A DNA stretch of 64,000 nucleotides, taken from IMG/VR virus record IMGVR_UViG_3300043372_000294, positions 32,744 to 96,743 of that record; one strand, 5' to 3'. A program made the translations under genes and the position numbers. Source of the DNA: a virus. Its lineage: Duplodnaviria; Caudoviricetes. Each line of letters opens with the position of its first letter. Position 1 is the first letter of the stretch. Below are positions 12,165 through 60,497 of the stretch, in pieces. A model generated the notes under the pieces. It did no database searches. It saw nothing but the letters and a program-made list of their open reading frames with translations, and was not told the DNA's origin.

Positions 12165-12485
12165 TTAGCCAAGTTTATAAAACTCTTCAACCATCTGCTT
12201 GGTAGCATAAGCAAAGTTATAAGGCTGAGTTTGCACTAAGTTATTAGCAACTCCTCCATCAAGAAGCTGAAAAGGGTCTTCCTTAGTAAAGATAACATCT
12301 TCCGCATGATAAGAATGTCCACCGACCATTTTCACCATGATCTTCTCAAGCATCAAAGCGGTGGTAGCATCAACTGTAGGGTCCGGAGAGGCCTCTAGAA
12401 TCGTCTCTGCCGTCTTCTTCTTTCGTTGTGCAGTAGTTTTAGCTACTTCTCTTTTAACTTCATTCTCAACAACTTCTTCTGTCAT
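12165..12485 (-). CDS. Small virion-region protein downstream of capsid gene
   Basis: RBS GGAG before MTEEVVEN; the track's upstream extension overlaps a terminator. Confidence 0.6.
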   Translation of the reverse strand: MTEEVVENEVKREVAKTTAQRKKKTAETILEASPDPTVDATTALMLEKIMVKMVGGHSYHAEDVIFTKEDPFQLLDGGVANNLVQTQPYNFAYATKQMVEEFYKLG

Positions 12486-12502
12486 TTTATCTCCTAAAAT
12501 AC

Positions 12503-12530
12503 TAAAGCCGGGGATTTCTCCCCGGCTAAA
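12503..12530 (-). terminator. Terminator after major capsid gene
   Basis: AGCCGGGGA-4 nt loop-TCCCCGGCT inverted repeat. Confidence 0.7.
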
Positions 12531-12558
12531 GTATACCACATTTTAAAGGCTACTCAGA

Positions 12559-47968: not shown

Positions 47969-47995
47969 AACCCCCGCAAGGGGGTTATTTTTTTT
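47969..47995 (+). terminator. Intrinsic terminator ending the plus-strand modification operon
   Basis: AACCCCC-GCAA-GGGGGTT then A and T8. Confidence 0.85.
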
Positions 47996-48236
47996 GCCCA
48001 AACCCAAAAAACCCAAAAATTTAATAAATACTCCGACAATGCTGCCCTGCCTACAGGAAACCACTGAAAACGTACAGAGGGCATGGACAACTGGCGTTCG
48101 TGACGCAGACTCGCTCGCTTGCTCGCCCTAGGAATAGGGTTGTGTGCTGACACGCAAATTGAGTACATGACTAGACACGCAGTCAGTCATCCAGTAAGGT
48201 TCACCCATCACCCACTAGCGCCCACGGAGGCACGCC

Positions 48237-48461
48237 ATGAACACCACCACCTACACCATCAACGCAGCGACCGGCAACTACCCCACCACCACTCATGAGG
48301 CAGCAGTCAACAACGGAGAGTCGGAGATGCACGCAGCCGGACTCATCGCCAATGGATGGCGTCAGACCCACGACAACGGCAACATGATCTGTCTCGCTCG
48401 CAACAACGCCACAGTCGTCATCACACGCACGCACGGCAGCGTGCAATACACGCAAGGCTGA
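48237..48461 (+). CDS. Cassette 1 hypothetical protein
   Basis: RBS GGAGG; fills repeat interval. Confidence 0.75.
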   Translation: MNTTTYTINAATGNYPTTTHEAAVNNGESEMHAAGLIANGWRQTHDNGNMICLARNNATVVITRTHGSVQYTQG

Positions 48462-48622
48462 CATGGCAGCGAGCGAGTCTGGCGTTCGTGACGCAGGCTC
48501 GCTCGCTTGCTCGCCCTTGGAAGAGGGTATGTGCTAGCACGCAAATTGAGTACATGACTAGCTTTCTCTCCCGATCTGTGCTTGACTCTCACCAACACCA
48601 ACCAACGCCCACGGAGGCCACC

Positions 48623-48850
48623 ATGAACACCATCACCCGCACCGCCATCAACATCCTCATCGGACTGGGAGCCATCATCGCTCTCACCGCTCCGATGGTG
48701 GGAGCCATGATCCTCGCGCTCTCGCTCTTCCCAGATTCACCCACCGATGCCATCCCCACCATCATCGTGGTGGCAGGTGTCGGAGCCGGACTGGGAGCCA
48801 TGTGGCTCTACAGTCTCATCATGGACCCACTGCTCCCCGCCAATCGCTAG
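48623..48850 (+). CDS. Cassette 2 two-TM membrane protein
   Basis: RBS GGAGG; MNTITRTAINILIGLG... Confidence 0.75.
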   Translation: MNTITRTAINILIGLGAIIALTAPMVGAMILALSLFPDSPTDAIPTIIVVAGVGAGLGAMWLYSLIMDPLLPANR

Positions 48851-48992
48851 CTAGTCGAGCCGGAGTCTGGTGTTCGTGACTCCGGCTCGCTCGCTTGCTC
48901 GCCCTGCCGAATAGGTAGGTAGTTGACAACACACTTGAGTGTGTGTCAGGATGGTGGCTGGCCCCGAGAGACGGGGCAGCAGAAAGGGAATC

Positions 48993-49133
48993 ATGACCGA
49001 AGAAGAGTGGGAGCGCTACGAGGCTGAGATCCTCAACCTTCAGGCGAAGCGTTGGGCGAATCGTGATCAGTCGATCACCAGCGTCGGGTACCGAATGCTG
49101 CAGCGTTCGCAGCAGTCAAAGACTCGCCGGTAG
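48993..49133 (+). CDS. Cassette 3 small protein (46 aa)
   Basis: TTGACA-N18-CAGGAT, hairpin, AGAAAGGG RBS. Confidence 0.7.
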   Translation: MTEEEWERYEAEILNLQAKRWANRDQSITSVGYRMLQRSQQSKTRR

Positions 49134-49275
49134 GTGGCAGCGAGCCGGAGTCCCGTTCGTGATTCCGGCTCGCTCGCTTGCTCGCCCTCCAATGATGTAC
49201 CGACTTGACAGCACACTTGAGTGTCTGCGCACAATGTAGGCGGAGCCGGAAAGACCGGCTCCAAGAAAGGGAAAC

Positions 49276-49524
49276 ATGAACGGAACATACGTCAACCACG
49301 GGGTCCACATCAGTGTGGTGGATTTCTTCCTGACCGAACAGACTTCGGCTGAGAACCCCAAGAACGTGAATCAGGCGATCATCCTGAATCGCACGTTCGC
49401 TGAGGGCGACTACCGCTGTCTCCACACGAACGGGAACCACACTGTCTGGGAAGGCCCCAAGGGCATCGTGACTGTCTCACGATGTGAGCTTCCGACTCTC
49501 ACCGTCTCGCCCCGCGAGTCTTGA
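49276..49524 (+). CDS. Cassette 4 hypothetical protein
   Basis: TTGACA-N19-CACAAT, hairpin, AGAAAGGG RBS. Confidence 0.75.
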   Translation: MNGTYVNHGVHISVVDFFLTEQTSAENPKNVNQAIILNRTFAEGDYRCLHTNGNHTVWEGPKGIVTVSRCELPTLTVSPRES

Positions 49525-49668
49525 GTCAGGGCGAGCCGGAGTCCCGTTCGTGATTCCGGCTCGCTCGCTTGCTCGCCCATGCAGAATGGGTACCTACTTG
49601 CGCAGCAGTTGAACGTGTGTCAGAATGATCCCCGAGGCACTCCCGCCTCCCCCACGAAAGGCAGTCCA

Positions 49669-49893
49669 ATGACCCAGACCCAGTTCCTCGCCTCGCTCCC
49701 CGAGCCCGCCACGGCCCTTGTGGAGCGTGCCATTCGCATGATGCGCAGCACAGACTCCGGCCCGCAGCGTCACGCTCGGGAGTGCATCGTCGCAGCCGCA
49801 GGGATGCTCGTCGGCGCAGGAATGGCAGACACGCTTTCCGGCGCAGTCTTCATGATCGAAGACGGAGCCGGAATCCTCATCCCGCACCCGTAG
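49669..49893 (+). CDS. Cassette 5 hypothetical protein
   Basis: GAAAGG RBS before MTQTQFL. Confidence 0.7.
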   Translation: MTQTQFLASLPEPATALVERAIRMMRSTDSGPQRHARECIVAAAGMLVGAGMADTLSGAVFMIEDGAGILIPHP

Positions 49894-50035
49894 GCGAAAG
49901 CGAGCCGGAGTCCCGTTCGTGATTCCGGCTCGCTCGCTTGCTCGCCCTTGGAGCTAGGTACATAGTTGACAGGGAACTGGAATGCGTGCCTATAATGAGA
50001 TCGGAGCAGCCCCCGCTCCCCAACGAAAGGCAATC

Positions 50036-50143
50036 ATGGCTGATTTCTTCGAAGTAGCTTTCATGCTCTCCCTCCCATTCATCCTCACTTCCCTCATCCT
50101 CCTCATCATCTACGTCATCTACGTCAATCTGGATGACCTATAG
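50036..50143 (+). CDS. Cassette 6 single-TM peptide (35 aa)
   Basis: TTGACA-N19-TATAAT; MADFFEVAFMLSLPFILTSLILLIIYVIYVNLDDL; not in track. Confidence 0.7.
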   Translation: MADFFEVAFMLSLPFILTSLILLIIYVIYVNLDDL

Positions 50144-50276
50144 GCTCCGTCGGCGTTCGTGATTCCGGCTCGCTCGCTTGCTCGCCCATCGACTAGGTAG
50201 GTAGTTGACCCTGGCGGTGAGTATGTGTCAGAATGATCATCAAGGCCCAACACAGGGCGAACAGAAAGGGAAACCA

Positions 50277-50468
50277 ATGCAACTCATAAAGTCCACAGAC
50301 CTTCTCCCCCACGACTCAATCCTCACAGTAGAGGGTGTTTCTCACTTCGTGGTGATGCTCACCCTAGAGCCCGGAGGATGCACGATTCTGTGGCAGTCAA
50401 TGGCCACCGGGGAGCGTTGGCAAGACTGCTACTCAAAGCATGAACGCCTAGAGGTATTCAGGGTCTGA
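50277..50468 (+). CDS. Cassette 7 hypothetical protein
   Basis: TTGACC-N18-CAGAAT, AGAAAGGG RBS. Confidence 0.7.
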   Translation: MQLIKSTDLLPHDSILTVEGVSHFVVMLTLEPGGCTILWQSMATGERWQDCYSKHERLEVFRV

Positions 50469-50576
50469 CAGGCGTTCGTGCTTCCGGACTCGCTCGCTTG
50501 CTCGCCCATTGACTAGCGGCTACGCTTACGCCAGGATTTAGTACCCAAACAGAAACCCAAACAGAAAGGCCCTACA

Positions 50577-50783
50577 ATGATCGTCAAAGTATCCCGAGAG
50601 TACGCCACCGAGAACGGAATCATCTCGGCATCAATCCTGTGCGACTCATGCAACGGACGAACCGGAGCCATCGACACCCCCGATGGGGAGAGCATGACTT
50701 GGGGACCGACGTACTTCGATTGGGAATACCAGTGGTGGCTTTGTGAGCCATGCGCTGACGACTTCATCGCCAACATCGGCTAG
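50577..50783 (+). CDS. Cassette 8 Zn-finger-like protein
   Basis: CDSC...CEPC; AGAAAGG RBS. Confidence 0.7.
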   Translation: MIVKVSREYATENGIISASILCDSCNGRTGAIDTPDGESMTWGPTYFDWEYQWWLCEPCADDFIANIG

Positions 50784-50912
50784 CGGAGGCGTGCGTAGCG
50801 CCGGACTCGCTCGCTTGCTCGCCCATCGAATGCGGATGAGTTGACAGGCCCAATGGAGTATGCAAGTATGCAAAGGAGCGCCGGACCCTCCGGCGCAACG
50901 CAAGGGGAAACC

Positions 50913-51197
50913 GTGAACATCAATACTCGGATCATTGAGACGGACGAAGACTACGCGAGGCGCGAGGTTCTACTAGACGGGCAAGTCGTCGGGGAGATCC
51001 ACCGAAGCAGCGGTTGGGGAGACTACGGGAGAGATAGCCGTTGGTACTTCCCCGGAGGCGGGAGAATGATTCCATGTGAAAGAATGGGGGAGGCAATCTT
51101 GCAGGCCCTGAGGGACCATCTCGCTCCCGAAGAGATGAACGCAGCGCGAATCCAGCTAAAGCTCAGGGGAGCGCATGAGCAACGCTCCCGTGCGTAG
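50913..51197 (+). CDS. Cassette 9 hypothetical protein
   Basis: GTG start after AAGGGG; stop lies inside repeat. Confidence 0.7.
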   Translation: MNINTRIIETDEDYARREVLLDGQVVGEIHRSSGWGDYGRDSRWYFPGGGRMIPCERMGEAILQALRDHLAPEEMNAARIQLKLRGAHEQRSRA

Positions 51198-51313
51198 CGC
51201 CTGATCGCTCGCTTGCTCGCCCCTCGGGAACGGGTGACTTGCACAACGCAATTGGGTATGCAATGATGAACCCAGCGGGCATAGGGCCCGCTGGGATGAG
51301 AAAGGGAAACGAA

Positions 51314-51526
51314 ATGGAAATCGATCTCGCTTGCGGGCATGAGGCAGAACTGGGTTCGGAGGTTTTCTCGCACTACACCATGCGAACGGGCACTATCGTC
51401 CGACTCTACGAAGATGGGTGGTTCGACGTTGTTGGAACTGATCATGGAAATATGCTCAACGGGGAACGGGCCATGTGCCTCGCCTGTGGTGACCGCTACT
51501 GGCCGGAACAACGATCCCGTGCGTAG
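51314..51526 (+). CDS. Cassette 10 Cys/His protein
   Basis: CGH...C..C; stop lies inside repeat. Confidence 0.7.
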   Translation: MEIDLACGHEAELGSEVFSHYTMRTGTIVRLYEDGWFDVVGTDHGNMLNGERAMCLACGDRYWPEQRSRA

Positions 51527-51606
51527 CACAGATCGCTCGCTTGCTCGCCCCCTTGACACCACTTCGGTAGTCAAGTAGATTTAGTACACGAAAGAAAGGG
51601 AAACCC

Positions 51607-51762
51607 ATGCCAGAAGCAACGAAAACCTGCCCGAAGTGCGAAGGGGCCACGATGCTGATCGTTCTAGAAGAGCTCGTCATGAGTCTGATTTACTGCCCCG
51701 ATTGTCGGGGACGGGGACGGATCCCGTGCGTAGCATCAGATCGCTCGCTTGCTCGCCCATGA
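51607..51762 (+). CDS. Cassette 11 DnaJ-type Zn-finger peptide (51 aa)
   Basis: CPKCEG...CPDCRGRG; reads through the repeat; not in track. Confidence 0.6.
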   Translation: MPEATKTCPKCEGATMLIVLEELVMSLIYCPDCRGRGRIPCVASDRSLARP

Positions 51763-51850
51763 TCAACGGCGCATAGTTGCATTCCTACTTGAGTGTATGT
51801 CTATAATGGGTATCAGGATGTCCCCGACTCACGAACACAGGAGAAACACA

Positions 51851-51940
51851 ATGAGAACCGCAATGTTTTTCGCACTCGTCCTACTCCTCCCCGCCCTGAC
51901 TCTCTACACAGGGCGACAGGGCCGACGCTCCCGTGCGTAG
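51851..51940 (+). CDS. Cassette 12 hydrophobic peptide (29 aa)
   Basis: TTGCAT-N19-TATAAT, AGGAG RBS; stop inside repeat. Confidence 0.6.
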   Translation: MRTAMFFALVLLLPALTLYTGRQGRRSRA

Positions 51941-52131
51941 CACCCGCTCGCTCGCTTGTTCGTCCATCCAGACCGTACCTCTAAAATTTCTACATTGAGT
52001 GTACATAGTTATCCACAGAAGCCGCCAACTATTTAGTCTTCTCTTTGCCTTCTCGTAACCTTCCGTTCACTTGGGTATGATTCAATGGTGTCTGTCGGGG
52101 GGACAGTCCCCCCGACATGAGAAAGGGAATC

Positions 52132-52488
52132 ATGATCAGGATCTACCGGAAGGCAAAGCGCACCGCTAAGCCGACCAAAGCAAAGCGTGAGACAGTCACT
52201 CACGCACTGGCACTGTCTCGCGTCGATCGGCCCAACGTCGTCGAACTCTTCATGTCGGGAGAGTTCCACCGACTCCCCATCGTTCCGCCCCATGTCGTGA
52301 AAAACCCTGCGCTACGTCGTCGGGATCACGCGAACGATGGGTGGGTCGTGCCAGTCGCTGACTACGGGCGAGGCAATCGTGAAGAGTCGAAACTGACTCA
52401 GCAGCTGCTGCTCTTCATCGTTCGATATTTCGTCGATACCGGCGTGATCGATCGCGACGAATACGCAATCGTCGTAGACCCAGACTGA
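52132..52488 (+). CDS. Cassette 13, 118-aa paralog family copy A
   Basis: IRIYRKAK.T.KP.KA.R...SGEFH.LPIVP.H..KN..LR.RD. Confidence 0.85.
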   Translation: MIRIYRKAKRTAKPTKAKRETVTHALALSRVDRPNVVELFMSGEFHRLPIVPPHVVKNPALRRRDHANDGWVVPVADYGRGNREESKLTQQLLLFIVRYFVDTGVIDRDEYAIVVDPD

Positions 52489-52630
52489 ACACAGTCCACC
52501 GAGTTATCCACAGGCAGTAGTCGAGCCTGTGGATAACTCCCGTGCTCCGCACGCCGCTCGCTCGCTTGTTCGTCCATCCGATTACGTTCCTAGTTGACAG
52601 GAAGATTGAATGCCCATGTATACTGATCCC

Positions 52631-52948
52631 ATGACACTGACCGACTTCATCGCAACCGTAACCCGACTGGCCATCGCTCTAAGCGACGGAGATAACGTGT
52701 ACGTTTCCGGCGCTCTACTGCGACCCATTCACAAGGCCATGAAAGCCGAACGAATCCGCCTCACTGATGCGGAGTTCGCCGCTCTCATGTACGAATGGCA
52801 GAAGTCAGAATCGCACAAGCCGCAGGATGAGTCAGTCATGTTCACGGCAGCCACTGGTACCAAAAACGGAACGCACTACTGGCTCAGAATTGATGACGCA
52901 CCTTGGACAGTACACTTCGTCGGAATCCGTCTCCGCCGCCCAAAATGA
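52631..52948 (+). CDS. Cassette 14 hypothetical protein, probably leaderless
   Basis: TTGACA-N19-TATACT with ATG 6 nt after the -10; no RBS. Confidence 0.7.
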   Translation: MTLTDFIATVTRLAIALSDGDNVYVSGALLRPIHKAMKAERIRLTDAEFAALMYEWQKSESHKPQDESVMFTAATGTKNGTHYWLRIDDAPWTVHFVGIRLRRPK

Positions 52949-53053
52949 AGCTCCCGTACGCTCCGCACGCCGCTCGCTCGCTTGTTCGTCCACTTGACGC
53001 CATCCCCACACTCGACTAGATTGAATACGCAAACAGAAACCGAAAGGGACACC

Positions 53054-53272
53054 ATGACAATCCGCCCCATTGCAGACTGCACCATCGAAACCGGAGAGCC
53101 CGAGCTTTGCGAAGATGGAGAGATCCGCTACCGACTCACCGCCCGATTCCCCGATGGAACGTGGATGGCCACCTACTGGCACCCTCCGCTTCCCCCTCGA
53201 CCGGGGATGCCCGGAGGAAACTGGCAGACCATCGAAGAATTCACCTCATGGATCGAATGGGCCCGGTCCTAG
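53054..53272 (+). CDS. Cassette 15 hypothetical protein
   Basis: TTGACG-N17-TAGATT, GAAAGGG RBS. Confidence 0.7.
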   Translation: MTIRPIADCTIETGEPELCEDGEIRYRLTARFPDGTWMATYWHPPLPPRPGMPGGNWQTIEEFTSWIEWARS

Positions 53273-53395
53273 TACCCGCACGCCGCTCGCTCGCTTGTTC
53301 GTCCACCGATCATGTACCAACTTGACAGCCCAGTTGAGCATCTGCGCATAATGGACCCCCGAGGCATCCCCGCCTCACCCCGAAAGGAAAACCCA

Positions 53396-53752
53396 ATGGA
53401 AATCCGCATCTACCGCAAGGCCAAGCTCACCACGAAGCCCACGAAGGCCGTTCGTGCAGCCGTGGAGCATGAGCTCATGATCTCCCGCTTCCCGAAGCCC
53501 CTCACCACCGAGTGGTTCCTCTCCGGCGAGTTTCACCGCCTCCCGATCGTTCCCGCTCACATCATCAAGAACGCCCCACTCCGCCAGCGTGACTACATCG
53601 ACGCAGGATGGATTGTGCCGGAGTCCGAGCACGGACGCATCAACCGTGAGCCGGAGAAAGCCTCACAGGTCATCCACGCATGGATCGTGCGCTACATGGT
53701 GGCAGCCGGAGCCATCGATCGTGCCGAGTTCGCCGTAGTGGTGGACCACTGA
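53396..53752 (+). CDS. Cassette 16, 118-aa paralog family copy B
   Basis: As copy A; TTGACA-N19-CATAAT. Confidence 0.85.
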   Translation: MEIRIYRKAKLTTKPTKAVRAAVEHELMISRFPKPLTTEWFLSGEFHRLPIVPAHIIKNAPLRQRDYIDAGWIVPESEHGRINREPEKASQVIHAWIVRYMVAAGAIDRAEFAVVVDH

Positions 53753-53901
53753 CCCAGGAACAGCGGCGGCGCGGTTGTGCGGAGGCACGCCGCTCGCTCG
53801 CTTGTTCGTCCACGGAGAAGGTACCCAGTTCGACAGGCAGTTGAGTACACGCTACGATTCACGACAGGGCCGACGGGGCCCTGCACAGAAAGGGAAAACC
53901 A

Positions 53902-54186
53902 ATGGAAAACACTGAGTCGAAAGCTCACGAGATTCTCGGCGGCGAGCGTCTCGCGTGGATGAAGGGCGCCCCGTGCGTCGGGCGAGGAGAACTGTTCTTC
54001 GGCCCCTTCCGTGAGGGCGAGAAGGGCCGCCGACGTCGGGAGCATTTCGCTCGCCAGATCTGCCAGACCTGCGATGCGATGCAGGAATGCCGCCAGTACG
54101 CCCGAGACGCCCACGAACAGGGTTACTGGGGCGGCGAGGGCGAAGAGGCACGCGAGCGAGCAGTGAGGCTCACACAGGGCGCATGA
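53902..54186 (+). CDS. whiB: WhiB-family transcriptional regulator (cassette 17)
   Basis: W...A.C.G...LFF...A..IC..C.....C..YA.....GYWGG. Confidence 0.9.
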   Translation: MENTESKAHEILGGERLAWMKGAPCVGRGELFFGPFREGEKGRRRREHFARQICQTCDAMQECRQYARDAHEQGYWGGEGEEARERAVRLTQGA

Positions 54187-54809
54187 GCGAGGGCGAGCGG
54201 TTGTGCGGAGGCACGCCGCTCGCTCGCTTGTTCGTCCATGAAACTACGAAGCAAAATGCTCCAAAATTGATCACATTCCACAAAACGCTGCCTATGTAAC
54301 CCTGTTACAATGTGTTTATGAACATAACTATGTTCAAAATACCCTCTTATAAGACCCCTTCTAGATATCCCCGCCCAAGGAGGGAGGGCGCCAGCCCGCC
54401 GCTCGCTCGCTTGTTCGTCCACCCGAACCGTATCTGTAAAATTCTTACATTGAGTACGCATAGTTATCCACACCCTGTGGAAAAGTTATCCACAGCCCTG
54501 TGGAAAACCCGTTGGGTGCATATTCATGCATCGAAACGCAAAATATGCATACCCTCTCAGATCGCACAGAATGGCCCTAGAGCCGTCCGACCCCCATTGC
54601 GCCACAGCTACCGCAGAAAGTCCTCGCAGACGCTTAGGGAGGACCGTATAGAAATCCTACAATCCGCCCCAATCTGTAGAGAAAACCTACAGAAACAGCG
54701 TCAAAAGGTGTGACGGATGTCACATCTCAGAATTGTGTACCTAGCTACGAAACGCGATACGCTTCACCTAGTGAGTCGAACCGTTCGGTTCACAGAAAGG
54801 CAGTCAGTC

Positions 54810-55166
54810 ATGCGAATCCTCATCTACCGGAAGGCAAAGCTCACCGCCAAGCCTTCCAAAGCGAAGCGTGAAGCTCTCGCCCACGAGCTTGCCATCTCCC
54901 GAATCTCGAAGCCTCAGGTTCGCGAGTTCTTCGAGTCCGGCGAGTTCCACAAACTGCCAATCGTTCCGCAGCACGTTGTGAAGAACGCCCCACTCCGAAT
55001 CCGCGACCACTCCGCCGATGGCTGGGAGGTTCCCGAAGATGAGTTCGGAAACGTGAACCGTGAGCTTGAGAAGGCTTCCCAAGTGATTCACGCGTGGATC
55101 ATCCGCTACATCGTCGCATCGGGGATCATCTCACGCGAAGAGTTCGCAGTCGTAGTCGAACCCTAG
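54810..55166 (+). CDS. Cassette 19, 118-aa paralog family copy C
   Basis: AGAAAGG RBS before MRILIYRKAK. Confidence 0.85.
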   Translation: MRILIYRKAKLTAKPSKAKREALAHELAISRISKPQVREFFESGEFHKLPIVPQHVVKNAPLRIRDHSADGWEVPEDEFGNVNRELEKASQVIHAWIIRYIVASGIISREEFAVVVEP

Positions 55167-55173
55167 AACCCCA

Positions 55174-55216
55174 AAGTTATCCACAGGCAGCAGTCGGGCC
55201 TGTGGATAACTTTTTT
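55174..55216 (+). terminator. Terminator hairpin built from inverted DnaA boxes (similar hairpin at 52501-52539)
   Basis: AAGTTATCCACAGGC...GCCTGTGGATAACTT followed by a T-run. Confidence 0.7.
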
Positions 55217-55531
55217 GCGGTCGTCCTACGGACGCCGCCCGCTCGCTTGTTCGTCCAGCAATTAGGTTCCTATTTATGTACCCATTTTAGTGCATAATCG
55301 TAAACATAAATAGCTTTCTGACGTTGAGATACATAATCAATTTCCTAAATATGTTCCAAAATATGTCTTATAAGGGCTACATATATATGCCCCGGCCAGC
55401 CTCTAGTAATGTTACAAAACTGGTGTGACGGATGTCACATCTCAGGATTGTGTTTATGTTCCCCCTAGCGAGTATCTTGGAGTTTGTGGCCGAGAGGGAC
55501 TTAGCCACAAAGTAGGAAGGGAAAGCTAATT

Positions 55532-55786
55532 ATGTTCACAGGTGGCATCACACGACAGCAATTCCTGAGGATGGCAGAAATCCTCGGGCTGACCGGCGAA
55601 GAGCAAGCAGTAATTATGTACCGATTTGGTATCGGTGACGGAATTGTCCGCACCATTCCCGAAGTGACAAAGATCATGAATCGGGAACATAATTATGCAG
55701 AGGACGATGAGTATCGGAACGAAGATATCCGAACCATAGAATCCGTTGCTATTCGTGCAATCAACGGACTAGAGGGGGGAGCATAA
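55532..55786 (+). CDS. Stand-alone sigma-70 region-4-like HTH protein
   Basis: LT.EEQ.VI.YRFGIGDG..RT..EV......EDIR.IE..AIR matches the sigma4 pattern. Confidence 0.7.
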   Translation: MFTGGITRQQFLRMAEILGLTGEEQAVIMYRFGIGDGIVRTIPEVTKIMNREHNYAEDDEYRNEDIRTIESVAIRAINGLEGGA

Positions 55787-55788
55787 TT

Positions 55789-55962
55789 ATGCGAGTAAAT
55801 ACTAGAAAGAACAGTTCGATGCGTAAGCGACCTACTCACAGTTCGGTAGTAGCAAAGTCGAAAACGCACAAATCTTCTGAGAAAGAAAAGAAGAGAGAAC
55901 TGCAAGCTAAATATGTTGCTAAACTCTCAGCCTCCGCCCAAGATCTCACGAAAGGTGCCTAA
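55789..55962 (+). CDS. Small basic protein (57 aa, MRVNTRKNSS...)
   Basis: Translated by hand; GGAG RBS. Confidence 0.5.
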   Translation: MRVNTRKNSSMRKRPTHSSVVAKSKTHKSSEKEKKRELQAKYVAKLSASAQDLTKGA

Positions 55963-56014
55963 ATAGGTTCCTCACATATTTAGGTAGCTGTCCCCCCTTT
56001 CCGGCTACCTAATT

Positions 56015-56050
56015 AGATACCCCACCAGTTCCGCCGCTGGTGGGGTATCT
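56015..56050 (+). terminator. Hairpin with TTCCGCCG loop (twin at 56753-56794)
   Basis: AGATACCCCACCAG/CTGGTGGGGTATCT; twin AGATAACCCCCTCGG/CCGAGGGGGTTATCT plus T-run. Confidence 0.7.
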
Positions 56051-56441
56051 TCATATCCATCTAAATATGTTCCCAAATAGATTCCTAAATAGGTACATAA
56101 ATAAGTACATAAATAGCAGGGCGGGCCCGCTCGCGGTTCCTGTTTCTTGCCCGCCCTCTAATTATGTACCTAAATAGGTTGCTACTTTGATACATAATTC
56201 TATTCTCAATTATGTACCTAAATATCCTCTATAAAATGTAAATACATATCCCCGTAAATAGATTCCCAACTATGTCCTATAATAGCAACATATTTATGCC
56301 CCGACTTTGACGTTTGTAAAACTTCTACAAGGTGTGACGGATGTCACACCGCAGAATGCCATTTATGTTCCCCATCTAGGGTAAGTTAGTGTCAACGGAT
56401 CGGGGCAATACGGCCCCGCCGCTAGAAAAGGAAACGCAATT

Positions 56442-56714
56442 ATGTTTGAAATCATTCCCGTCTCAGAGGTTCGGGTTTCGCCCCGTGGCCGAAAGACCAC
56501 CTACAACGAGGACCTGATCAAGGCTCTCAAGACCCTCAAGACAGGACAGGCCGTGAACCTCGGCGGACTCTACGGGAACGTAGCGAAGAAGGACCGAGCG
56601 AGCGTCGCCCAGAGCATCCGCAAGCACTGGAAGGCTGCTCGCGAGGACGGTTGTCGGATCGATTGGGATTCCGAAACCGGTTTCGCTCAGATTCAGGCTA
56701 AGGCAGATAAGTAG
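56442..56714 (+). CDS. Small basic putative DNA-binding protein (VSPRGRK), paralog 1
   Basis: AGAAAAGG RBS; clearly similar to 57082-57366. Confidence 0.85.
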   Translation: MFEIIPVSEVRVSPRGRKTTYNEDLIKALKTLKTGQAVNLGGLYGNVAKKDRASVAQSIRKHWKAAREDGCRIDWDSETGFAQIQAKADK

Positions 56715-57023
56715 CCACCAGTTTATGTAGGGTCCCGCCCCCCTACATAAATAGATAACCCCCTCGGTTCCGCCGCCGAGGGGGTTATCTTTTTGCGTCC
56801 CTAAATAGATACCTAAATAGGAACATAAGTACAAACATAATTAGCTACCTAAATAGATACATATTTATGTACATAATTGGCGGGGTGTTCCCCTCAGCTT
56901 TTCGGGAACATGAACACCCCCTAAATATGTACCTAATTATGTTGCTACTTTGATACATATTTTGAAACCTATTTATCTACCCCAGATAGCTCTATAATTA
57001 TGTAACCATTTACCCCGCCAAAT

Positions 57024-57057
57024 AAAAAAGCCCCCGAGCATCCTTCGCTCGGGGGCT
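57024..57057 (-). terminator. Terminator for 57082-57366
   Basis: AGCCCCCGAGC/GCTCGGGGGCT then T-run on minus strand. Confidence 0.8.
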
Positions 57058-57081
57058 GGCACTACTTAGGGGGCTAAATAT

Positions 57082-57366
57082 CTAACCCCTACGGGCAAGG
57101 CTAACCTGCGCCATGCCCGTCTCGCCGTTCCAATCGATTCGGCACGCATCCTCACGCACATGGCGCCAATGTTTCCGAATCGTTTGGGCGACGGAGGCAC
57201 GCTGCGACTTGGGGACATTGCCGAACGGAGTGAGAACCAACGCCTGACCTTCCTTCAGCGCTGCCAGCGCCTTTAGAAGATCTTCGTTGAAAACCGTCTT
57301 GCGACCCCTCGGGCTAACTCGCACCTCGGAAACCGGAATTACTTCAAACTTACTCATGTCACTCAC
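57082..57366 (-). CDS. Small basic putative DNA-binding protein (VSPRGRK), paralog 2, inverted
   Basis: GAGGAGG RBS; FE.IPVSEVRVSPRGRKT..NEDL.KAL. Confidence 0.85.
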   Translation of the reverse strand: MSDMSKFEVIPVSEVRVSPRGRKTVFNEDLLKALAALKEGQALVLTPFGNVPKSQRASVAQTIRKHWRHVREDACRIDWNGETGMAQVSLARRG

Positions 57367-57950
57367 CTCCTCTCAGAATCTCAGTGTGTCGGTGAGCCGT
57401 TCCCACCAACAACTAAAACTTACTCGCTAACCCCTACATAAACACAATCGTAGCGTGTGACATCCGTCACACCCTCTAACATTCCTACAACGCCGCCACC
57501 GCATACTCAGCCACATAAACAGCCGCATACACAGCAACATAAACAACAGCATACATACAAACATAAACAGCAAACTAAATAGAAACATAAATAGCGGCAT
57601 ACTTATGTACATAATTAGGCACGGGCGTTCCCATCGCCTTTTATGGGAACTTGACGCCCGTTATTTATGTAGCTAATTAGCTGCCTAGTTGAGTCTATAA
57701 TTGGAAACCTATTCCCCCGCCTAATTATGTGCCCAGTTATGTAAACTCATTTATGTGCCTAATTAGGTAAAGTGATTTCGGTTTCAGAAGTTTATTCAGA
57801 TCTAAAGATAGAGATTTTATATAGCCCTTATAAGGGCCCTTTTTATTTGCCCCGCCAAGGCAGAATCTTATCCATCAATTTGCGCATACCAGTCAACTAG
57901 AGTACGCTACTCCTATCGAAGCAATCATCCCCAACACGAAAGTGCGAATT

Positions 57951-58154
57951 ATGTCAGATACAAAGGTTGTAACAGAAACTGTAAAAGGAATTATCGCACT
58001 TGTTGCGCTACTTCTTATCGCCTTTCTTTACTCAGAGTTTTGCATAAAGTCTGAGAACGATTCCTACAATAGGAATTACGAAAAGATTCAGCGAATCATG
58101 GATCAAAACCGCATGGACAACAACAACTCACTCATCATGGGAGAAATGAAATGA
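57951..58154 (+). CDS. Single-TM small protein
   Basis: GIIALVALLLIAFLY helix. Confidence 0.6.
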   Translation: MSDTKVVTETVKGIIALVALLLIAFLYSEFCIKSENDSYNRNYEKIQRIMDQNRMDNNNSLIMGEMK

Positions 58155-58420
58155 ATAAGGAATACGAAAAGATGTCGGATTCTACACGGGAAAGGTTGGA
58201 GAGTGAGTTTCGTAATCTTCTCATGACTATTCCTTTCTCTAAGCGTTTAGAGTTGGAGCAAGCAGTTCGGGCAGAATGTTACGCTAAACTTCAGGATAAG
58301 ATCCTGCAGTTTGATGAGCATTGGAGTGTCTATGATAGTTCTGTAGATTCTCAGATTTCAGGATGGAAAGATTATGTCGATCCCATCACCGGAAAAATCA
58401 ACGAAAGTGATCTCTTCTAA
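58151..58420 (+). CDS. Hypothetical protein
   Basis: ATGA coupling. Confidence 0.65.
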   Translation: MNKEYEKMSDSTRERLESEFRNLLMTIPFSKRLELEQAVRAECYAKLQDKILQFDEHWSVYDSSVDSQISGWKDYVDPITGKINESDLF

Positions 58421-58758
58421 TGCTTACCCCAGTTATTCCCGAAATGAGTGACGTAAACGATACGCCATTCGATAGGTATGTTGTTGCCACTACTGATGGC
58501 ATCAATCTTACCGGTCTTTCTTCCTATCTTTATTTCATAGAAGATGCTTGTACAGAGTACGAAACTCTTTTGCAAGAGTTTCCGAACGACATCATCATCA
58601 TGATTCTCAATGAAACGGGCAAAATGTTTGTCAATTCTGTTGACAAAGCTCTTTTCGATAGAAAGAACTATGGAGTTATGCCACTTCCTGATGATAGGAA
58701 GTGGGATATCCGTGACGGTTGTTTTCCCGCAGTAATGTTCCCCGAGAAAGGTGCATGA
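58420..58758 (+). CDS. Hypothetical protein
   Basis: TAATG coupling. Confidence 0.65.
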   Translation: MLTPVIPEMSDVNDTPFDRYVVATTDGINLTGLSSYLYFIEDACTEYETLLQEFPNDIIIMILNETGKMFVNSVDKALFDRKNYGVMPLPDDRKWDIRDGCFPAVMFPEKGA

Positions 58759-58760
58759 TA

Positions 58761-58946
58761 ATGAGTAATCATTTCTGTAGTGAGATCTGGTATGGTAGTG
58801 TTCATTCAGATTTGTGTGGTACTGATCTTTCCGATTCAGAATGGCGTAATCTTCTACATAACGCTCTGAATGAATGGTTGGATAACAGTAACGGTGAAGG
58901 TTGTTTCTATGTTGGCCATTTTCCTGAAGAATCGGAGGAGGAATAA
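58761..58946 (+). CDS. Small acidic protein
   Basis: GAAAGG RBS. Confidence 0.55.
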   Translation: MSNHFCSEIWYGSVHSDLCGTDLSDSEWRNLLHNALNEWLDNSNGEGCFYVGHFPEESEEE

Positions 58947-59107
58947 TGGGAAAGATTATTATCCCTACTGATCCCGAGTTTTCTGATGTTGTTTATGAGT
59001 GTGATACTTGCGATAAAGCTTACACTTATGAACCAAAAGATTCTTTTCAGACTTACAATGCACAATGGTTTTGTTCGGAAGAATGCGGAAAGAAAGGTGG
59101 TTGGTAA
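58946..59107 (+). CDS. Zn-finger peptide (CDTC...FCSEEC, 53 aa)
   Basis: Translated by hand; GGAGG RBS; TAATG-coupled on both sides. Confidence 0.6.
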   Translation: MGKIIIPTDPEFSDVVYECDTCDKAYTYEPKDSFQTYNAQWFCSEECGKKGGW

Positions 59108-59268
59108 TGCCTGACTCTATGGATTGGGTAAAAAGTGGCATGAGAAGTTGTGATGAATGTGGCCGTGAAACTGATGCCGGAGAATGGCCGGATTGGGTAA
59201 ACGGTATCTGTGAGGATTGTGATCCCACTATCCTTTTCGATTACAGTGAGGAGAATAGTAATGCCTAA
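59107..59268 (+). CDS. Zn-finger peptide (CDEC...CEDC)
   Basis: Coupled start MPDSMDW. Confidence 0.55.
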   Translation: MPDSMDWVKSGMRSCDECGRETDAGEWPDWVNGICEDCDPTILFDYSEENSNA

Positions 59269-59809
59269 TTGGTGCTACAATCACATCGAAGTATTTGATG
59301 TTGGTGAAGATAAGAAAGAACGTGATCGTTTTTTCTCTGAGGAAGAGTTTGCCATTACAACTCCCCTCCAAAAATATCTCCCAATGTCTGAGTATCATAA
59401 GACAATGGAAGGCTACAATGATGGTGGCTATTCATGGTGCTATGATAATTGGGGAACAAAGTGGCCTGAAAATGATCTTACTCTTATCGATAATGAATAC
59501 TCTCTAGACTTCTCCTTTGATTCTCCGTGGGGTCCACCTATTGAGGGTTATCAAAAGATCTCAGCAATGTTCCCCGAATTGTTCTTCCTGCATTATTATC
59601 AGGAAGATGGTATGTGTTTTTCAGGTTCTATTATTTACCATCAGGGTAGTCAAGTATTCGTCAAAGAATACAATGATAAAGATTGGCCTGAATGGTTGCC
59701 GGAATATGAAGACAATCCAGATCCCTATTATGAGTTGGTAACTGAAAAGAGATACCAAACTCTAGGGGAAGCTCAAAAGGTTTTGGAAAAACTTCTTCAT
59801 ATCGAATAG
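59261..59809 (+). CDS. DUF1281/YubB ferredoxin-like domain protein
   Basis: MPNWC.N, Y.W...NWGTKW, F.SPW.PP, Y.E.G..F.G. Confidence 0.75.
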   Translation: MPNWCYNHIEVFDVGEDKKERDRFFSEEEFAITTPLQKYLPMSEYHKTMEGYNDGGYSWCYDNWGTKWPENDLTLIDNEYSLDFSFDSPWGPPIEGYQKISAMFPELFFLHYYQEDGMCFSGSIIYHQGSQVFVKEYNDKDWPEWLPEYEDNPDPYYELVTEKRYQTLGEAQKVLEKLLHIE

Positions 59810-60437
59810 TCTCATGGGGATGAGAATAAATGGGGGCCTAAATAGGCCCCTATTTATTTCCCCCTTCTATTTATGTACCCAACTATACTTCCGGCTATCC
59901 CCCCAATTATGTTCCCATCTATGTACATAATTAGCAGGGCGTTCCCAACGTCTTTCTGGGAACTGTAACGCCCTCTGTTTATGTACCTAATTAGGTTGCT
60001 AATTGAGTGCATAATCTATTTCCCCATATTTATGTTCCTAATTATGTGCCTAATGTAATTCAAATGTTTATGCCCCTATTTATGTACCTAATTGGGGGGC
60101 GGCGAAAAGGTTTTGATTTACCTCTAGCTAGAGGTTTCAATAAGGCCTTATAAAAGCCTCGTCACTATCCCCGTGACATAGCGTGAGACACCTCTATTTT
60201 CGTTTCTAAGCGCCTTGAAGTATGGAATGGGGTGATTCCTACTATCATTACAAAAAGACGTCAAAGAGGGGCAAATAGATGTCTCGGTTAGATATTCAAA
60301 AAAGAATATGAAAGAAAGATCTAACCCACAAAAATCTGTTCAAAAATCCCTTTAAAAATGCCGGAAAATATAGATATATGTTTTAAAATACCCCTATAAT
60401 AGCATAAATATATGCCCCGTCGGACAAAAAAGGCATG

Positions 60438-60466
60438 AAAAAAGCCCGCATTTCTGCGGGCCTTTT
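60438..60466. terminator. Bidirectional terminator
   Basis: AAAAAA-GCCCGCA-TTTC-TGCGGGC-CTTTT. Confidence 0.8.
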
Positions 60467-60481
60467 CAAATACTATTCAAT

Positions 60482-60497
60482 TGTTTCACGTGAAACA
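60482..60497. promoter_or_regulatory. parS: Perfect parS site TGTTTCACGTGAAACA
   Basis: Exact match to the 16-bp bacterial chromosomal ParB-binding palindrome; intergenic. Confidence 0.85.

Follow-up and report, generated by a model that had tools for sequence, protein, structure and literature searches.

Hairpins and a distal box at near-constant spacing in the early island of an actinobacterial phage: a putative transcription checkpoint

The early island of an uncultivated phage of actinobacteria raises the question of what holds a hairpin-type core and a distal box at an almost constant distance in 24 successive copies. The window, meaning the whole 64,000-nucleotide stretch that was analysed, is the right two thirds of the 96.7-kb genome (about 40% GC) of a siphovirus of an actinobacterium. 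The phage carries a WhiB-like gene, and its portal shares 40-45% identity with those of Streptomyces cluster BE/BK phages. The GC-rich island contains about 30 small plus-strand open reading frames, all 24 elements (Table 1), iterons, DnaA boxes, CRP-like palindromes and parS, with many sites for DNA-binding proteins; its left border is a terminator (47969-47986), and minus-strand genes converge on it from the right. For n cassettes there are n+1 elements, one at either island edge being counted in. The island is probably a host-takeover or terminal-repeat module and, by analogy, probably the equivalent of the 11-kb terminal repeat in cluster BE1 Streptomyces phages. An ejection or packaging signal, one of the options proposed earlier for the element, would be compatible with such an equivalence. 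In Mildred21, a distantly related BE1 phage, the one terminal repeat examined lacks the hairpin-box geometry; it codes for proteins resembling Lsr2 and ParB, and each of its junctions carries a palindrome of its own.

Table 1 Elements, candidate genes and island in the window (positions of the window; gap given between upstream part and box).
Feature	Position	Strand	Upstream part	Gap	Box	Remarks
Element 1	48109..48166	+	core	N30	TTGAGTAC	no SigA promoter after
Element 2	48497..48553	+	core (strong hairpin with left arm)	N29	TTGAGTAC	
Element 3	48885..48942	+	core (strong hairpin)	N30	TTGAGTGT	box in -35/-10 spacer
Element 4	49168..49224	+	core (strong hairpin)	N29	TTGAGTGT	box in -35/-10 spacer
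Element 5	49559..49616	+	core (strong hairpin)	N30	TTGAACGT	
Element 6	49928..49985	+	core (strong hairpin)	N30	TGGAATGC	
Element 7	50168..50224	+	core	N29	GTGAGTAT	
Element 8	50488..50544	+	core	N29	TTTAGTAC	box immediately 3' of -10
Element 9	50805..50861	+	core	N29	TGGAGTAT	
Element 10	51203..51259	+	core	N29	TTGGGTAT	
Element 11	51531..51587	+	core	N29	TTTAGTAC	box immediately 3' of -10 TAGATT
Element 12	51739..51796	+	core	N30	TTGAGTGT	
Element 13	51946..52002	+	core	N29	TTGAGTGT	DnaA box downstream
Element 14	52556..52613	+	core	N30	TTGAATGC	left end of two-cassette indel relative to L303
Element 15	52972..53028	+	core (no real hairpin, -4.7 kcal/mol)	N29	TTGAATAC	box immediately 3' of -10
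Element 16	53285..53341	+	core	N29	TTGAGCAT	right end of indel relative to L303
Element 17	53792..53848	+	core (strong hairpin)	N29	TTGAGTAC	
Element 18	54218..54274	+	core (strongest hairpin, -43 kcal/mol)	N29	TTGATCAC	weakest box
Element 19	54401..54457	+	core	N29	TTGAGTAC	DnaA boxes downstream
Element 20 (hybrid)	55237..55293	+	GC-type core	N29	TTTAGTGC	AT-type spacer with two 11-mers
Element 21	56119..56193	+	different hairpin (foot GGGCG/CGCCC)	N29	TTTGATAC	
Element 22	56882..56956	+	different hairpin (foot ...CACCC)	N29	TTTGATAC	
Element 23	57621..57696	+	different hairpin	N29	TTGAGTCT	
Element 24 (last)	59936..60010	+	different hairpin	N29	TTGAGTGC	
Basic protein gene	56442..56714	+				90 aa; motifs RGRKT and IRKHW
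Paralogue of RGRKT/IRKHW family	57082..57366	-				opposite strand
GC-rich early island	47990..60450	+				12.4 kb; 51-59% GC at 48-56 kb versus about 40% GC in the phage

All 24 pairs of core end and box start listed in a preliminary description of this DNA were verified, including those at the four hairpins of different sequence. The gap, counted from the last C of CGYCC to the first base of the box, measures 29 nt in 18 copies; the other six have 30 nt. When the window was compared with shuffled controls, CGYCC-N29-TTKRRTRY gave 12 matches where 0.08 were expected (100 dinucleotide shuffles) and CGYCC-N30-TTKRRTRY gave five where 0.10 were expected; the strict pattern thus matched 17 times against about 0.2 expected, always on the plus strand, and 16 of these matches were elements already listed. 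The hexamer T[TAG][GT]A[AG]T, with a background frequency of 0.0027 per nt, was present at N=29 or 30 in 17 of the 24 copies and in at most two copies at any other offset between 0 and 90. Because the remaining copies differ from it by one or two bases (for example TTGAAC, GTGAGT, TTGAGC, TTGATC and TTTGAT), the earlier wording "TTGAGTRY-like" describes the box correctly. Across the whole 96.7-kb genome the strict box occurs 13 times forward, nine of them at the N29/30 position, and 12 times in reverse; 11 of the reverse boxes lie within called open reading frames, and no context is common to any of the 12. The 20-nt core was found 20 times forward, never in reverse, and is confined to the island region. 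No element was observed on the opposite strand or outside the island, and the orientation is always that of transcription. Elements are located both within promoters and in short intergenic spaces.

The stems are near-perfect, GC-rich palindromes of 11-19 bp and are found between all neighbours among the roughly twenty small early genes. For the array of 20 cores, the term hairpin holds for about seven, which fold strongly (-32 to -43 kcal/mol), and is too generous otherwise, folding being weak in 13 of the 20 copies and nearly absent in copy 15, yet with the box retained. In the window, no T run follows the core or hairpins 21-24, unlike the canonical terminators of the same region. A crude test of the association between a missing U-tract and the box, across all small hairpins, was not significant.

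The box was previously described as anchored to the repeat and not to the SigA-type promoter, and this is strengthened by the variable promoter distance in relatives. The box lies within the -35/-10 spacer in copies 3-7, 9, 10, 12, 14, 16 and 17 and adjoins the -10 TAGATT in copies 8, 11 and 15; no close promoter follows copies 13 and 18-20. It is positioned 13 nt after the -35 in this phage and 22 or 40 nt before the -35 in G006, with no helical phasing, and the distance is different again in G001 and G003. Since this distance is not fixed, the box is not part of the promoter. T at position 2 of the box in 43 of 62 elements excludes a normal SigA -10.

The same island with the same geometry was found in five related phage genomes, so that the element was not refuted by the proposed check on spacing in relatives. 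In each of these, T-N-K-A-R-T-R-N-R-Y comes 27-30 nt after a long GC-rich hairpin whose foot reads CGCC[C/A]. The spacing is 27-30 nt throughout the six phage genomes (62 pooled elements) even though hairpins and spacers from different phages have no sequence relationship, and a constraint therefore ties the hairpin to the box. Since the geometry is retained where the surrounding sequence differs, it constitutes a real control element. Five further metagenome contigs containing the core of this phage have the box at N29/30 in 16 of 17 elements. Measured from CGCC[C/A], the distance is 28-30 nt in five of the six genomes and 27 nt in G003; measured from the physical end of the stem, it is 26-30 nt. 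The tighter distance from the sequence is a better fit to a reader of sequence than to a reader of structure. Phage-specific motifs are located 17-20 bp upstream of the box, namely GGTACC here, a 16-bp palindrome in G003 and GTAAnnTTAC in G005; the spacer of about 30 bp in this phage holds an operator-like (A/T)TGTACC or GGTACC.

The element is most likely a putative transcription checkpoint. Our tentative reading, to which we assign a probability of about 0.3, is a stoperator-like roadblock site combined with a hairpin that lacks a U-tract, with RNA polymerase as the ruler. Each cassette junction would be a strand-specific punctuation module, composed of a GC-rich hairpin with CGYCC (CGCC[C/A] in relatives) at the end of its 3' foot, about 30 bp with an operator-like motif, and the asymmetric, conserved box TTGAGTRNRY. 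A putative protein on the box would halt RNA polymerase coming from the upstream cassette at the point where the hairpin has just emerged from the RNA exit channel, and hairpin and roadblock would jointly separate the cassettes as an insulator or a factor-dependent terminator. In elongation complexes about 10 nt lie between the hairpin foot and the RNA 3' end, and about 17-19 bp of downstream DNA are held, which would add up to the 27-30 nt seen here. At junctions where the box and the following SigA-type promoter overlap, the majority in this phage, this protein may silence the promoter as well.

The lack of a T run after the hairpins counts in favour of the roadblock. Element 24 is placed 3' of the canonical terminator of the last plus-strand operon, with no plus-strand gene downstream, and its counterpart in G001 also comes after the last plus-strand operon, facing convergent genes; with nothing downstream to drive, both fit a stop signal and not a promoter. 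Several observations count against it: the weak folding of 13 of the 20 copies in which the box is kept, the tighter spacing from CGCC[C/A] than from the stem end, the near-perfect palindromic stems with their weak bias towards a more stable plus-strand fold, the non-significant U-tract test, and the canonical U-tract terminator just upstream of many hairpins in G001 and G006, because of which little transcription should reach those hairpins. The preliminary description knew of no element with this architecture, and none was found here either, although parts of it have close analogues in stoperators and PeSLs. Cluster A mycobacteriophages contain more than 20 asymmetric stoperators that halt elongation in one orientation only, and these share with the present elements an orientation along transcription and locations inside promoters and in short intergenic spaces (PMC9283540).

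The RGRKT/IRKHW family of about 90 amino acids is the only island protein family common to all six phages and is therefore a candidate for binding the box or the hairpin. The predicted model of the protein has the order helix-strand-helix-helix-strand-strand, as in a winged helix, and the protein is possibly of this type; its fold matches are at noise level (Z about 5), and the putative recognition helix is not conserved in G005. No match to the protein was found among 50,697 phage records, BE1 phages included.

It is possible, if rather unlikely, that the foot CGCC[C/A] and the box, about three helical turns apart, form a bipartite double-stranded DNA site for a putative architectural or regulatory protein complex. 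Such complexes would mark cassette boundaries and condense, silence or organise the early island, perhaps together with the DnaA boxes, CRP-like palindromes, iterons and parS, and polymerase would not set the distance. This would accommodate the sharper spacing from CGCC[C/A], its retention in copy 15 where a hairpin is impossible, the conservation of the foot sequence across phages and the density of protein-binding sites in the island. The proteins and junction palindromes of the Mildred21 repeat, and the small, basic, possibly winged-helix RGRKT/IRKHW protein, point in the same direction. However, CGCCC is also present on the other arm of every palindrome with no symmetrical upstream box, so the palindrome itself is left unexplained, and the two centres lie about 35 bp apart, which does not correspond to an integral number of helical turns.

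We consider it unlikely that the box is the -10-like hexamer of a second promoter class, in which the phage-specific motif 17-19 bp upstream would replace the -35, the hairpin would be a mere upstream terminator or insulator, and transcription would begin 6-8 nt downstream of the box. Each cassette would then have a second promoter of different timing, used by RNA polymerase together with either a phage factor or an alternative host sigma. Thirteen of the 17 boxes in G006 read TAGAGT or TAGAAT, which corresponds to the Streptomyces-type -10 consensus TAGRRT; the upstream motifs sit where a -35 or an operator would, and cassettes 1 and 2, with the best boxes, have no recognisable SigA promoter. 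Against this, position 2, the base flipped by sigma-70-type factors, is T in 43 of the 62 elements and is never A in this phage, and a search of three near-complete genomes returned no sigma-70 region 2 domain. A promoter would give no reason for a hairpin of variable sequence to lie at a fixed distance upstream, element 24 and its counterpart in G001 are not followed by any gene that a promoter could serve, and the box is missing from every other operon of the genome.

Improbable also is a recombination or nicking site, proposed earlier, in which a DNA hairpin and a distal box would be an enzyme substrate following an integron- or IS200-like logic, with cassettes cut or exchanged or strand-specific nicks made in virion DNA. 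The part concerning cassette variation held: contig L303, a natural variant without two of the cassettes, passes from the left flank of repeat 14 into the right flank of repeat 16, and the changeover falls within the core, which is also the case at PeSL repeats. The two cassettes at 52576-53304 were therefore gained or lost as a unit. Contigs L268 and L291 have one junction in common and differ upstream of it, cassette content is wholly different among relatives while island and punctuation are retained, and the n+1 count is in keeping with such a site. The part concerning the enzyme received no support: nothing links box or spacing to recombination, domains of tyrosine recombinases, serine recombinases and Y1 transposases were not found in G000, G001 or G006, and no integrase, resolvase, IS200-type transposase or sigma factor is encoded in the three near-complete genomes. 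Homologous recombination between identical repeats of 20-50 nt, as at PeSLs, suffices for the indel and accounts for neither box nor spacing. The box also lies 30 nt outside the stem, unlike the R' site of attC, and the G of GTTRRRY is not conserved.

An element acting in RNA is similarly doubtful. In read-through transcripts the hairpin would act jointly with UUGAGU, single-stranded and 30 nt further on, either as an antitermination site of the nut type (BoxB/BoxA) or as an RNase III/E site at which the polycistronic early RNA is cut into stable monocistronic messages. The early region of T7 has RNase III sites between its genes with stems comparable to those found here, and UUGAG presumably also occurs in the BoxA/BoxC region of the mycobacterial rrn leader. 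The plus-strand RNA fold is slightly more stable overall, a weak bias (Wilcoxon p=0.006, with copies that are non-independent) that is opposite in G003, and three or four phages have the pyrimidine-rich loop motifs TCGTTCCTC and GCTTTTCC in common. However, most cassettes here have their SigA promoter between hairpin and box, so that the pair is never on the transcript from that promoter, and in G001 and G006 the elements come after a canonical terminator. A fixed 29-30 nt of unconserved, unstructured RNA would be hard to measure, and Rfam gave no match for the element.

The minus-strand promoter of the preliminary description (ACTCAA at -35, TAC.T at -10, short antisense hairpin RNAs) is very improbable, since the TAC(A/C)T-like motif found 17 nt from the reverse complement of the box in this phage is nothing other than the phage-specific GGTACC or 11-mer and has no conserved counterpart in G001, G003, G005 and G006, ACTCAA resembles no known -35, and the sigma-70 region 2 domain was not found, as noted above. 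A search for a T7-type RNA polymerase domain gave no match, its control likewise matching in no genome. The weak A.GTA motif reported after the core was recovered at 0.6-1.0 bit; it belongs to the 11-mer WWWTAKGTWCC, of which 14 forward copies lie at 55.26-60.08 kb.

The element recurs 24 times in the window as a GC-rich hairpin or core ending in CGYCC, an interval and a TTGAGTRY-like box, with the interval from the end of CGYCC to the start of the box being 29 nt in 18 copies and 30 nt in six. Elements 1 to 20 have a common 20-nt core, which was found 20 times on the plus strand and not at all on the minus strand or elsewhere in the genome, and elements 21 to 24 are hairpins of different sequence. 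The near-invariant spacing proposed in the preliminary description held up against shuffled sequence, as its search pattern CGYCC-N29/30-TTKRRTRY gave 12 matches in the window at N29 and five at N30, versus 0.08 and 0.10 expected. All of these matches were on the plus strand and 16 of the 17 coincided with the 24 elements. A looser hexamer, T[TAG][GT]A[AG]T, was observed at N29/30 in 17 of the 24 copies and at any other offset in at most two; the other seven copies differed from it by one or two changes. Information content reached its maximum at the eight box positions and was low between core and box, except for a weak motif about 10 nt past the core that had also been noticed previously and corresponds to a copy of an 11-mer, WWWTAKGTWCC, repeated in the AT-rich right part of the island. 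The 11-mer has 14 forward copies there, partly in a 12-bp register, and reversed copies to the left of hairpins 21 to 24 place each of these hairpins at the center of a palindrome of about 70 bp. The iteron found at the same places differs in each related phage.

The hairpin described for every copy was confirmed only in part. Strong folding was predicted for about seven of the 20 cores, with a variable left flank, nearly none was predicted for copy 15, and a hairpin was present in about 11 of the 24 copies overall; what is conserved across the array is the sequence of the right arm. The elements were confined to the island, with one at each of its edges, and all 24 were co-directional with the island genes (none reversed). 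Element 24 and its counterpart in the related phage G001 are located downstream of the canonical terminator of the last operon, facing convergent genes.

The portal protein as query retrieved about 360 related contigs from IMG/VR, and further ones were obtained with an alignment of the RGRKT/IRKHW family, basic proteins of about 90 amino acids encoded by two genes of the island. The islands of five relatives were examined, namely G001 (97.5 kb), G003 (85.7 kb), G005 (52 kb), G006 (101 kb, complete) and G007 (29 kb). Each contains about 20 small co-directional genes. No counterparts of the window's cassette proteins were detected in G001, G006 or G007, the three relatives compared, and the window has in common with these only the RGRKT/IRKHW family and the flanking genes. 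In every island, long and near-perfect GC-rich hairpins are followed by T[TAG][GT]A[AG]TR; the left foot of the hairpin reads GCGGGCG, GCTGGCG or CGGGTG and its right foot CGCC[C/A] or CACCC. Each phage has several unrelated families of hairpin sequence, the spacers are unrelated between phages, and a short phage-specific motif is present 17-20 bp upstream of the box in each. The distance from CGCC[C/A] to the box was nevertheless kept, and no description of a hairpin-N29/30-box geometry kept through complete sequence turnover was found in the searchable literature. An internal distance that survives sequence turnover is the hallmark of machinery measuring about 30 bp.

Hairpin-to-box distance and spacer motif in the phages compared
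Phage	CGCC[C/A]-to-box distance	Elements	Spacer motif
This phage			GGTACC or 11-mer
G001	29-30 nt	9/10 (tenth without CGCC anchor)	ATGAAC-type iterons
G003	27-28 nt		16-bp palindrome
G005	28-29 nt		GTAAnnTTAC
G006	29-30 nt	17/17	TGGTGATAGC or GGTATC
G007	28-29 nt		TATGCATA

When 62 elements were pooled, the successive box positions were T (61), T (43), A (13) or G (6), G (48) or T (14), A (59), G (42) or A (18), T (59), R (61), N, R (52) and Y (59); since positions 8 and 9 were outside the search pattern, the true length of the box is about 10 bp. Distances to TNGARTRY had a flat distribution in a control set of 80 unrelated IMG/VR loci carrying a GCGGGCG...CGCCCGC palindrome, taken among the matches listed. 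A metagenome scan with the core of this phage returned five more contigs with two to six copies each, in which a box with at most one mismatch was located at N29/30 in 16 of 17 elements versus about 6% at control offsets. The core pattern produced only single chance matches in IMG/VR. Core matches in three other metagenome contigs (L297, L298 and L309) were false positives, unrelated GCTCGC-rich tandem arrays with repeats of about 90-130 bp and no boxes. In G003, two hairpin-box elements stand in tandem at each junction, and the spacer palindrome between hairpin and box, GTTAGG-N4-CCTAAC, resembles the IdeR/DtxR iron box. Two pyrimidine-rich loop motifs, TCGTTCCTC and GCTTTTCC or CTTTCT, recur across the phages. 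As with the 3' end of 16S rRNA, their sequence is complementary to that of the island's purine-rich ribosome-binding sites (AGAAAGG).

A run of T directly after the hairpin was absent in all 24 copies; the canonical terminators of the region have one. The elements were accordingly rejected as intrinsic (Rho-independent) terminators, no hairpin having a directly adjoining U-tract. The preferred reading, to which a probability of about 30% is assigned, is a stoperator-like roadblock for which the elongating RNA polymerase serves as the ruler. A nascent hairpin acts with its foot approximately 8-11 nt behind the RNA 3' end, and RNA polymerase holds approximately 17-19 bp of downstream duplex, so a protein bound at the box would be expected to stop the enzyme at the point of hairpin formation. 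The elongating polymerase would be what measures the 27-30 nt from the hairpin or its foot to the 10-bp box in one orientation, the bound protein would halt it exactly once the hairpin had formed, and the roadblock would replace the pause normally given by a U-tract. The stoperators of cluster A mycobacteriophages (L5 gp71, TipsytheTRex repressor), which are proposed to halt elongating RNA polymerase (PMC9283540), provide an actinophage precedent for the roadblock half of this model. Like the elements, they are short asymmetric sites in more than 20 copies whose orientation follows transcription, in actinobacterial phages, and they are located both in promoters and in short intergenic spaces (PMC9283540). 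Stoperators are 13-mers distributed genome-wide in temperate phages and bound by an immunity repressor with a helix-turn-helix and a stoperator domain (PMC9283540), whereas the box here has 8-10 bp, is restricted to the early island and is in every case coupled over 27-30 nt to an upstream GC-rich hairpin, in a phage with no integrase whose candidate binding protein belongs to an unrelated 90-aa family.

This family, RGRKT/IRKHW, is the only island protein family common to all six phages and is the obvious candidate for the predicted box-bound protein. Its structural model (pLDDT 74.5) has a winged-helix-like order of elements. Foldseek returned nothing for the model at E<=0.001, and VIA-align returned mixed winged-helix, R3H and RepE/Pi matches with Z of about 5, which is noise level. 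A PDB sequence-profile search returned nothing, no match was obtained among 50,697 phage records, and only viral clusters without names were retrieved from Atlas.

The probability of the roadblock was held down by points concerning its anchor, folding, upstream terminators, strand bias and the U-tract. A canonical terminator with a U-tract is often present a few bases upstream of the hairpin in G001 and G006, so that these relatives already have a terminator ahead of the element. An association between the missing U-tract and the box was not significant in a crude 2x2 table of all small hairpins. The plus-strand RNA fold of the hairpin is only slightly more stable, a weak bias, and the stems make almost no use of G-U pairs. 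The distance to the box is sharper with CGCC[C/A] as its starting point than with the stem end, and many array copies fold poorly; the elements may alternatively constitute a bipartite binding site on duplex DNA, which is possible though not likely.

The relation of the box to promoters bears on the reading of the elements as a second promoter class. Most cassettes have their own pair of TTGACA-like and TAnAAT-like hexamers. In 11 cassettes the TTGACA-like -35 is at +17 from the core, between core and box, and the -10 is at +41, which puts the box inside the -35/-10 spacer; in three others the -35 is at +3 and the -10, TAGATT, ends at the first bases of the box. Altogether, 14 copies have the box in the promoter spacer, at the -10 or at the start site, and the others have it far from any promoter, with no promoter at a comparable position in copies 1, 2, 13 and 18-24. 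Within this genome alone, the pattern could also reflect the common descent of a single 80-nt module, and the relatives are decisive. In G006 the SigA-type promoter (TTGACT, 17 nt, TAGTTT) follows the box at 22 or 40 nt, and those of G001 and G003 lie at other distances from it, so the box travels with the hairpin and not with the promoter, in agreement with the preliminary description. A manual count on the element sequences gave no helical phasing between box and promoter. A second promoter class is considered unlikely.

Several identities for the box itself were tried and rejected. It is not a -35, having no -10 at 17 nt downstream, nor a SigA -10 (A at position 2, T at position 6), given the composition of position 2 across the 62 elements, where this phage has no A at all. 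A general middle or late promoter element was rejected on the 12 other TTGAGTRY sequences on the minus strand of the genome, which have no common context and of which 11 are within called ORFs. Sites of host factors (the HspR HAIR half-site CTTGAGT, CIRCE, IHF, the ARG box, sigma-54 and the SigF/SigB -10 GGGTAY) matched as a half-site or at 5/6 positions at most, with the required partner absent. Elsewhere in the island, an 84-aa ORF resembles by eye a lone sigma-70 region 4 helix-turn-helix. This assignment was rejected because the best Pfam match (E 0.08) is an unrelated DUF and the ORF lacks conservation in the relatives.

An RNA-level site would recall lambda nut and the BoxB-BoxA of rrn operons, which likewise combine a hairpin with a short linear box at a set distance and in one orientation. 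In those systems, the spacing is about 4-10 nt and both parts are on the transcript past the promoter, whereas here hairpin and box are often separated by the promoter, and this reading is rated as improbable.

Much the same standing is given to a recombination or nicking site, which had been offered in the preliminary description. The part of that proposal that stands is the gain and loss of cassettes at the core. The contig L303 has 86% identity to a segment of the window, and to the left of one of its core copies is the sequence that stands left of repeat 14 in the window; the pair of cassettes that separates repeats 14 and 16 there is absent, with the switch located inside the core. Two other contigs, L268 and L291, have one junction in common with different sequence upstream. 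Homology alone suffices for such an indel, which therefore explains neither the box nor the spacing. Six-frame domain searches were carried out in the three near-complete genomes (this phage, G001 and G006). The tyrosine recombinase domain PF00589 gave no match at E<=1, with a positive control in 14 of 14 genomes, and no resolvase or IS200-type Y1 transposase domain was found, with working controls. A T7-type RNA polymerase domain search had no match, and its control was likewise without a match in any genome.

The array was also compared with two known kinds of repeat array. PeSLs of T4-like phages are composites of a stem-loop and an early promoter, repeated between the small and variable early ORFs of a hyperplastic region (PMC2839356, PMC4122927). 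As in this island, a stem-loop and a host-type early promoter are repeated between small ORFs that are not shared with relatives, and indels between related phages end in the repeat, of which L303 is the one clear case here. PeSLs are conserved as sequence and recombination requires only their homology (PMC4122927), unlike the present elements, whose hairpin-box distance is kept among phages with sequence-unrelated repeats and whose box is independent of the promoter. The carriers also differ, being T4-like myoviruses for PeSLs and an actinobacterial siphovirus with a portal closest to those of Streptomyces siphoviruses here. Integron arrays resemble this array in their one-directional, short, single-gene cassettes, their imperfect hairpin repeats with a conserved 3' arm and the gain or loss of cassettes as units (two cassettes in L303). 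An integron has the IntI tyrosine recombinase beside its array and cassettes mostly without promoters, expressed from Pc; here there is no integrase, most cassettes have their own promoters and the carrier is a lytic phage. The attC R' site GTTRRRY lies within the stem and has an invariant G, whereas the box is 29-30 nt beyond the foot and TTGAGT is preceded by A, C or G. The absence of an integrase removes membership among integrons. It is decidedly improbable that hairpin and box are the recombination site of an integrase-independent cassette-exchange system with an unrecognised enzyme, which would recognise the GC-rich hairpin by its structure in the DNA and act, by cutting or pairing, at the box a fixed distance away. 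If true, this would explain the complete turnover of cassettes between relatives with the punctuation geometry kept, and the early islands of lytic actinophages would be integron-like gene-capture platforms. Least probable, and very much so, is a minus-strand promoter as first suggested, since no sigma-70 region 2 domain was found in the three near-complete genomes (six-frame searches, working controls), which makes a phage sigma factor unlikely.

The virus record comprises 96,743 bp, of which the window covers bases 32744-96743, with a GC content of 30-47% over most of its length versus 51-59% at 48-56 kb of the window. It encodes a 1919-aa tape-measure protein, a portal, a class II ribonucleotide reductase and an amidase endolysin, is of siphovirus type and has five tRNA genes; ARAGORN found no tRNA-like gene in the island. 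One island cassette encodes a WhiB-like protein (PF02467, E 1.3e-8), from which the host is taken to be an actinobacterium. Judged by the portal, with 40-45% amino-acid identity, its nearest isolates are Streptomyces siphoviruses of the Mildred21/Gilson type (BE/BK). No DNA match to the array was obtained by megablast among 50,697 phage records, and Rfam at E<=1 gave nothing relevant. A high-GC island (50-63%) within a genome of 35-40% GC was observed in all six phages, with its genes not kept; escape from Lsr2-type silencing of AT-rich DNA as the cause is purely speculative. Three paralogous 118-aa proteins beginning M..IYRKAK are encoded in three separate cassettes. They had no Pfam or PHROG match and no relatives in G001, G006 and G007, and neither the methyltransferase nor a 118-aa paralogue retrieved related loci as a single-protein query.

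Locations of features (window positions unless a locus or contig, L, is named)
Feature	Location	Remark
Early island	47.99-60.45 kb	12.4 kb
Hairpin-box elements	48109-60010	24 copies, plus strand
High-GC region	48000-56000; L107, L112/L113, L114, L235, L236	GC content
118-aa paralogues	52132-52488, 53396-53752, 54810-55166	
84-aa ORF	55532-55786	
RGRKT/IRKHW genes	56442-56714 (+), 57082-57366 (-)	
11-mer WWWTAKGTWCC	55260-56933, 59869-60088	
Pyrimidine-rich loop motifs	elements 4-6, 21-24; L107, L112, L114	hairpin loops
Segment matched by L303	53278-54238	
Perfect DnaA boxes	52009-55209	five forward, two reverse
CRP/GlxR-like palindromes	54709-54724, 55424-55439, 56333-56348, 57456-57471	TGTGAC-N4-GTCACA
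parS-type palindrome	60482-60497	16 bp, perfect
G003 spacer palindrome	L235, ~9860-13480	
Mildred21 terminal repeat	L234, 1-10818	

The island falls within the range of the takeover modules of SPO1, T5 and BE1 phages, which have 10-13 kb and 20-30 tiny early genes with their own strong host-type promoters. Direct terminal repeats of about 11 kb, holding 20-25 small ORFs, are present in BE1 Streptomyces phages and were likened to T5 and SPO1 in their description (PMC5764925). By analogy, the island is probably the same kind of module as the BE1 terminal repeat, in single copy in the assembly, and the array as such is already known in kind, as PeSL-like repeats in a probable terminal-repeat takeover module. 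The terminal repeat of Mildred21 contains 21 small co-directional genes, with junctions made up of a terminator, a 15-bp palindrome, GGTACAT-like iterons and a SigA-type promoter (-35 TTGTAC, 17-nt spacer, -10 TAGACT); no hairpin-N30-box geometry and no box at a fixed distance were found in it. At most of the junctions examined, a 15-bp palindrome with the form TGTCCGGSCCGGACA stands just after a terminator that has no U-tract. The repeat also has CGGACAT alongside GGTACAT iterons, and neither palindromes nor iterons are annotated in the record.

Anti-defence and host-shut-off genes accumulate in the early takeover regions of large lytic phages, and the regulation and shuffling of these regions are poorly known beyond T4, T5 and SPO1. 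In a clade of uncultivated actinobacterial phages (six genomes and several contigs), the same two-part signal fences every early cassette. If RNA polymerase is indeed roadblocked, the element would be a factor-dependent terminator of an undescribed kind and would provide high-GC hosts with a new type of insulator part; if a recombination enzyme is responsible, it would represent a new cassette-capture system. Under either reading, CGCC[C/A]-N29/30-TTGAGT provides a simple sequence handle for finding such islands in metagenomes.

Other binding-site motifs were also observed in the island. A perfect parS-type palindrome at its right edge adjoins a bidirectional terminator, and neither parA nor parB was seen among the genes of the window. 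Seven perfect DnaA boxes (TTATCCACA), confined to one segment of the 96.7-kb genome, include several inverted pairs that form hairpins, and G001 and G007 have dozens of TT(A/G/T)TCCACA boxes between cassettes. The first-step-transfer region of T5 has DnaA boxes and repeats, as does the island here. Four palindromes fit the CRP/GlxR consensus, each just upstream of a CAGAAT- or CAGGAT-like -10, and precede a 118-aa paralogue, the 84-aa ORF and both RGRKT/IRKHW genes. A related sequence, GTGTGACATATGACCA, precedes the RGRKT/IRKHW genes of G001.
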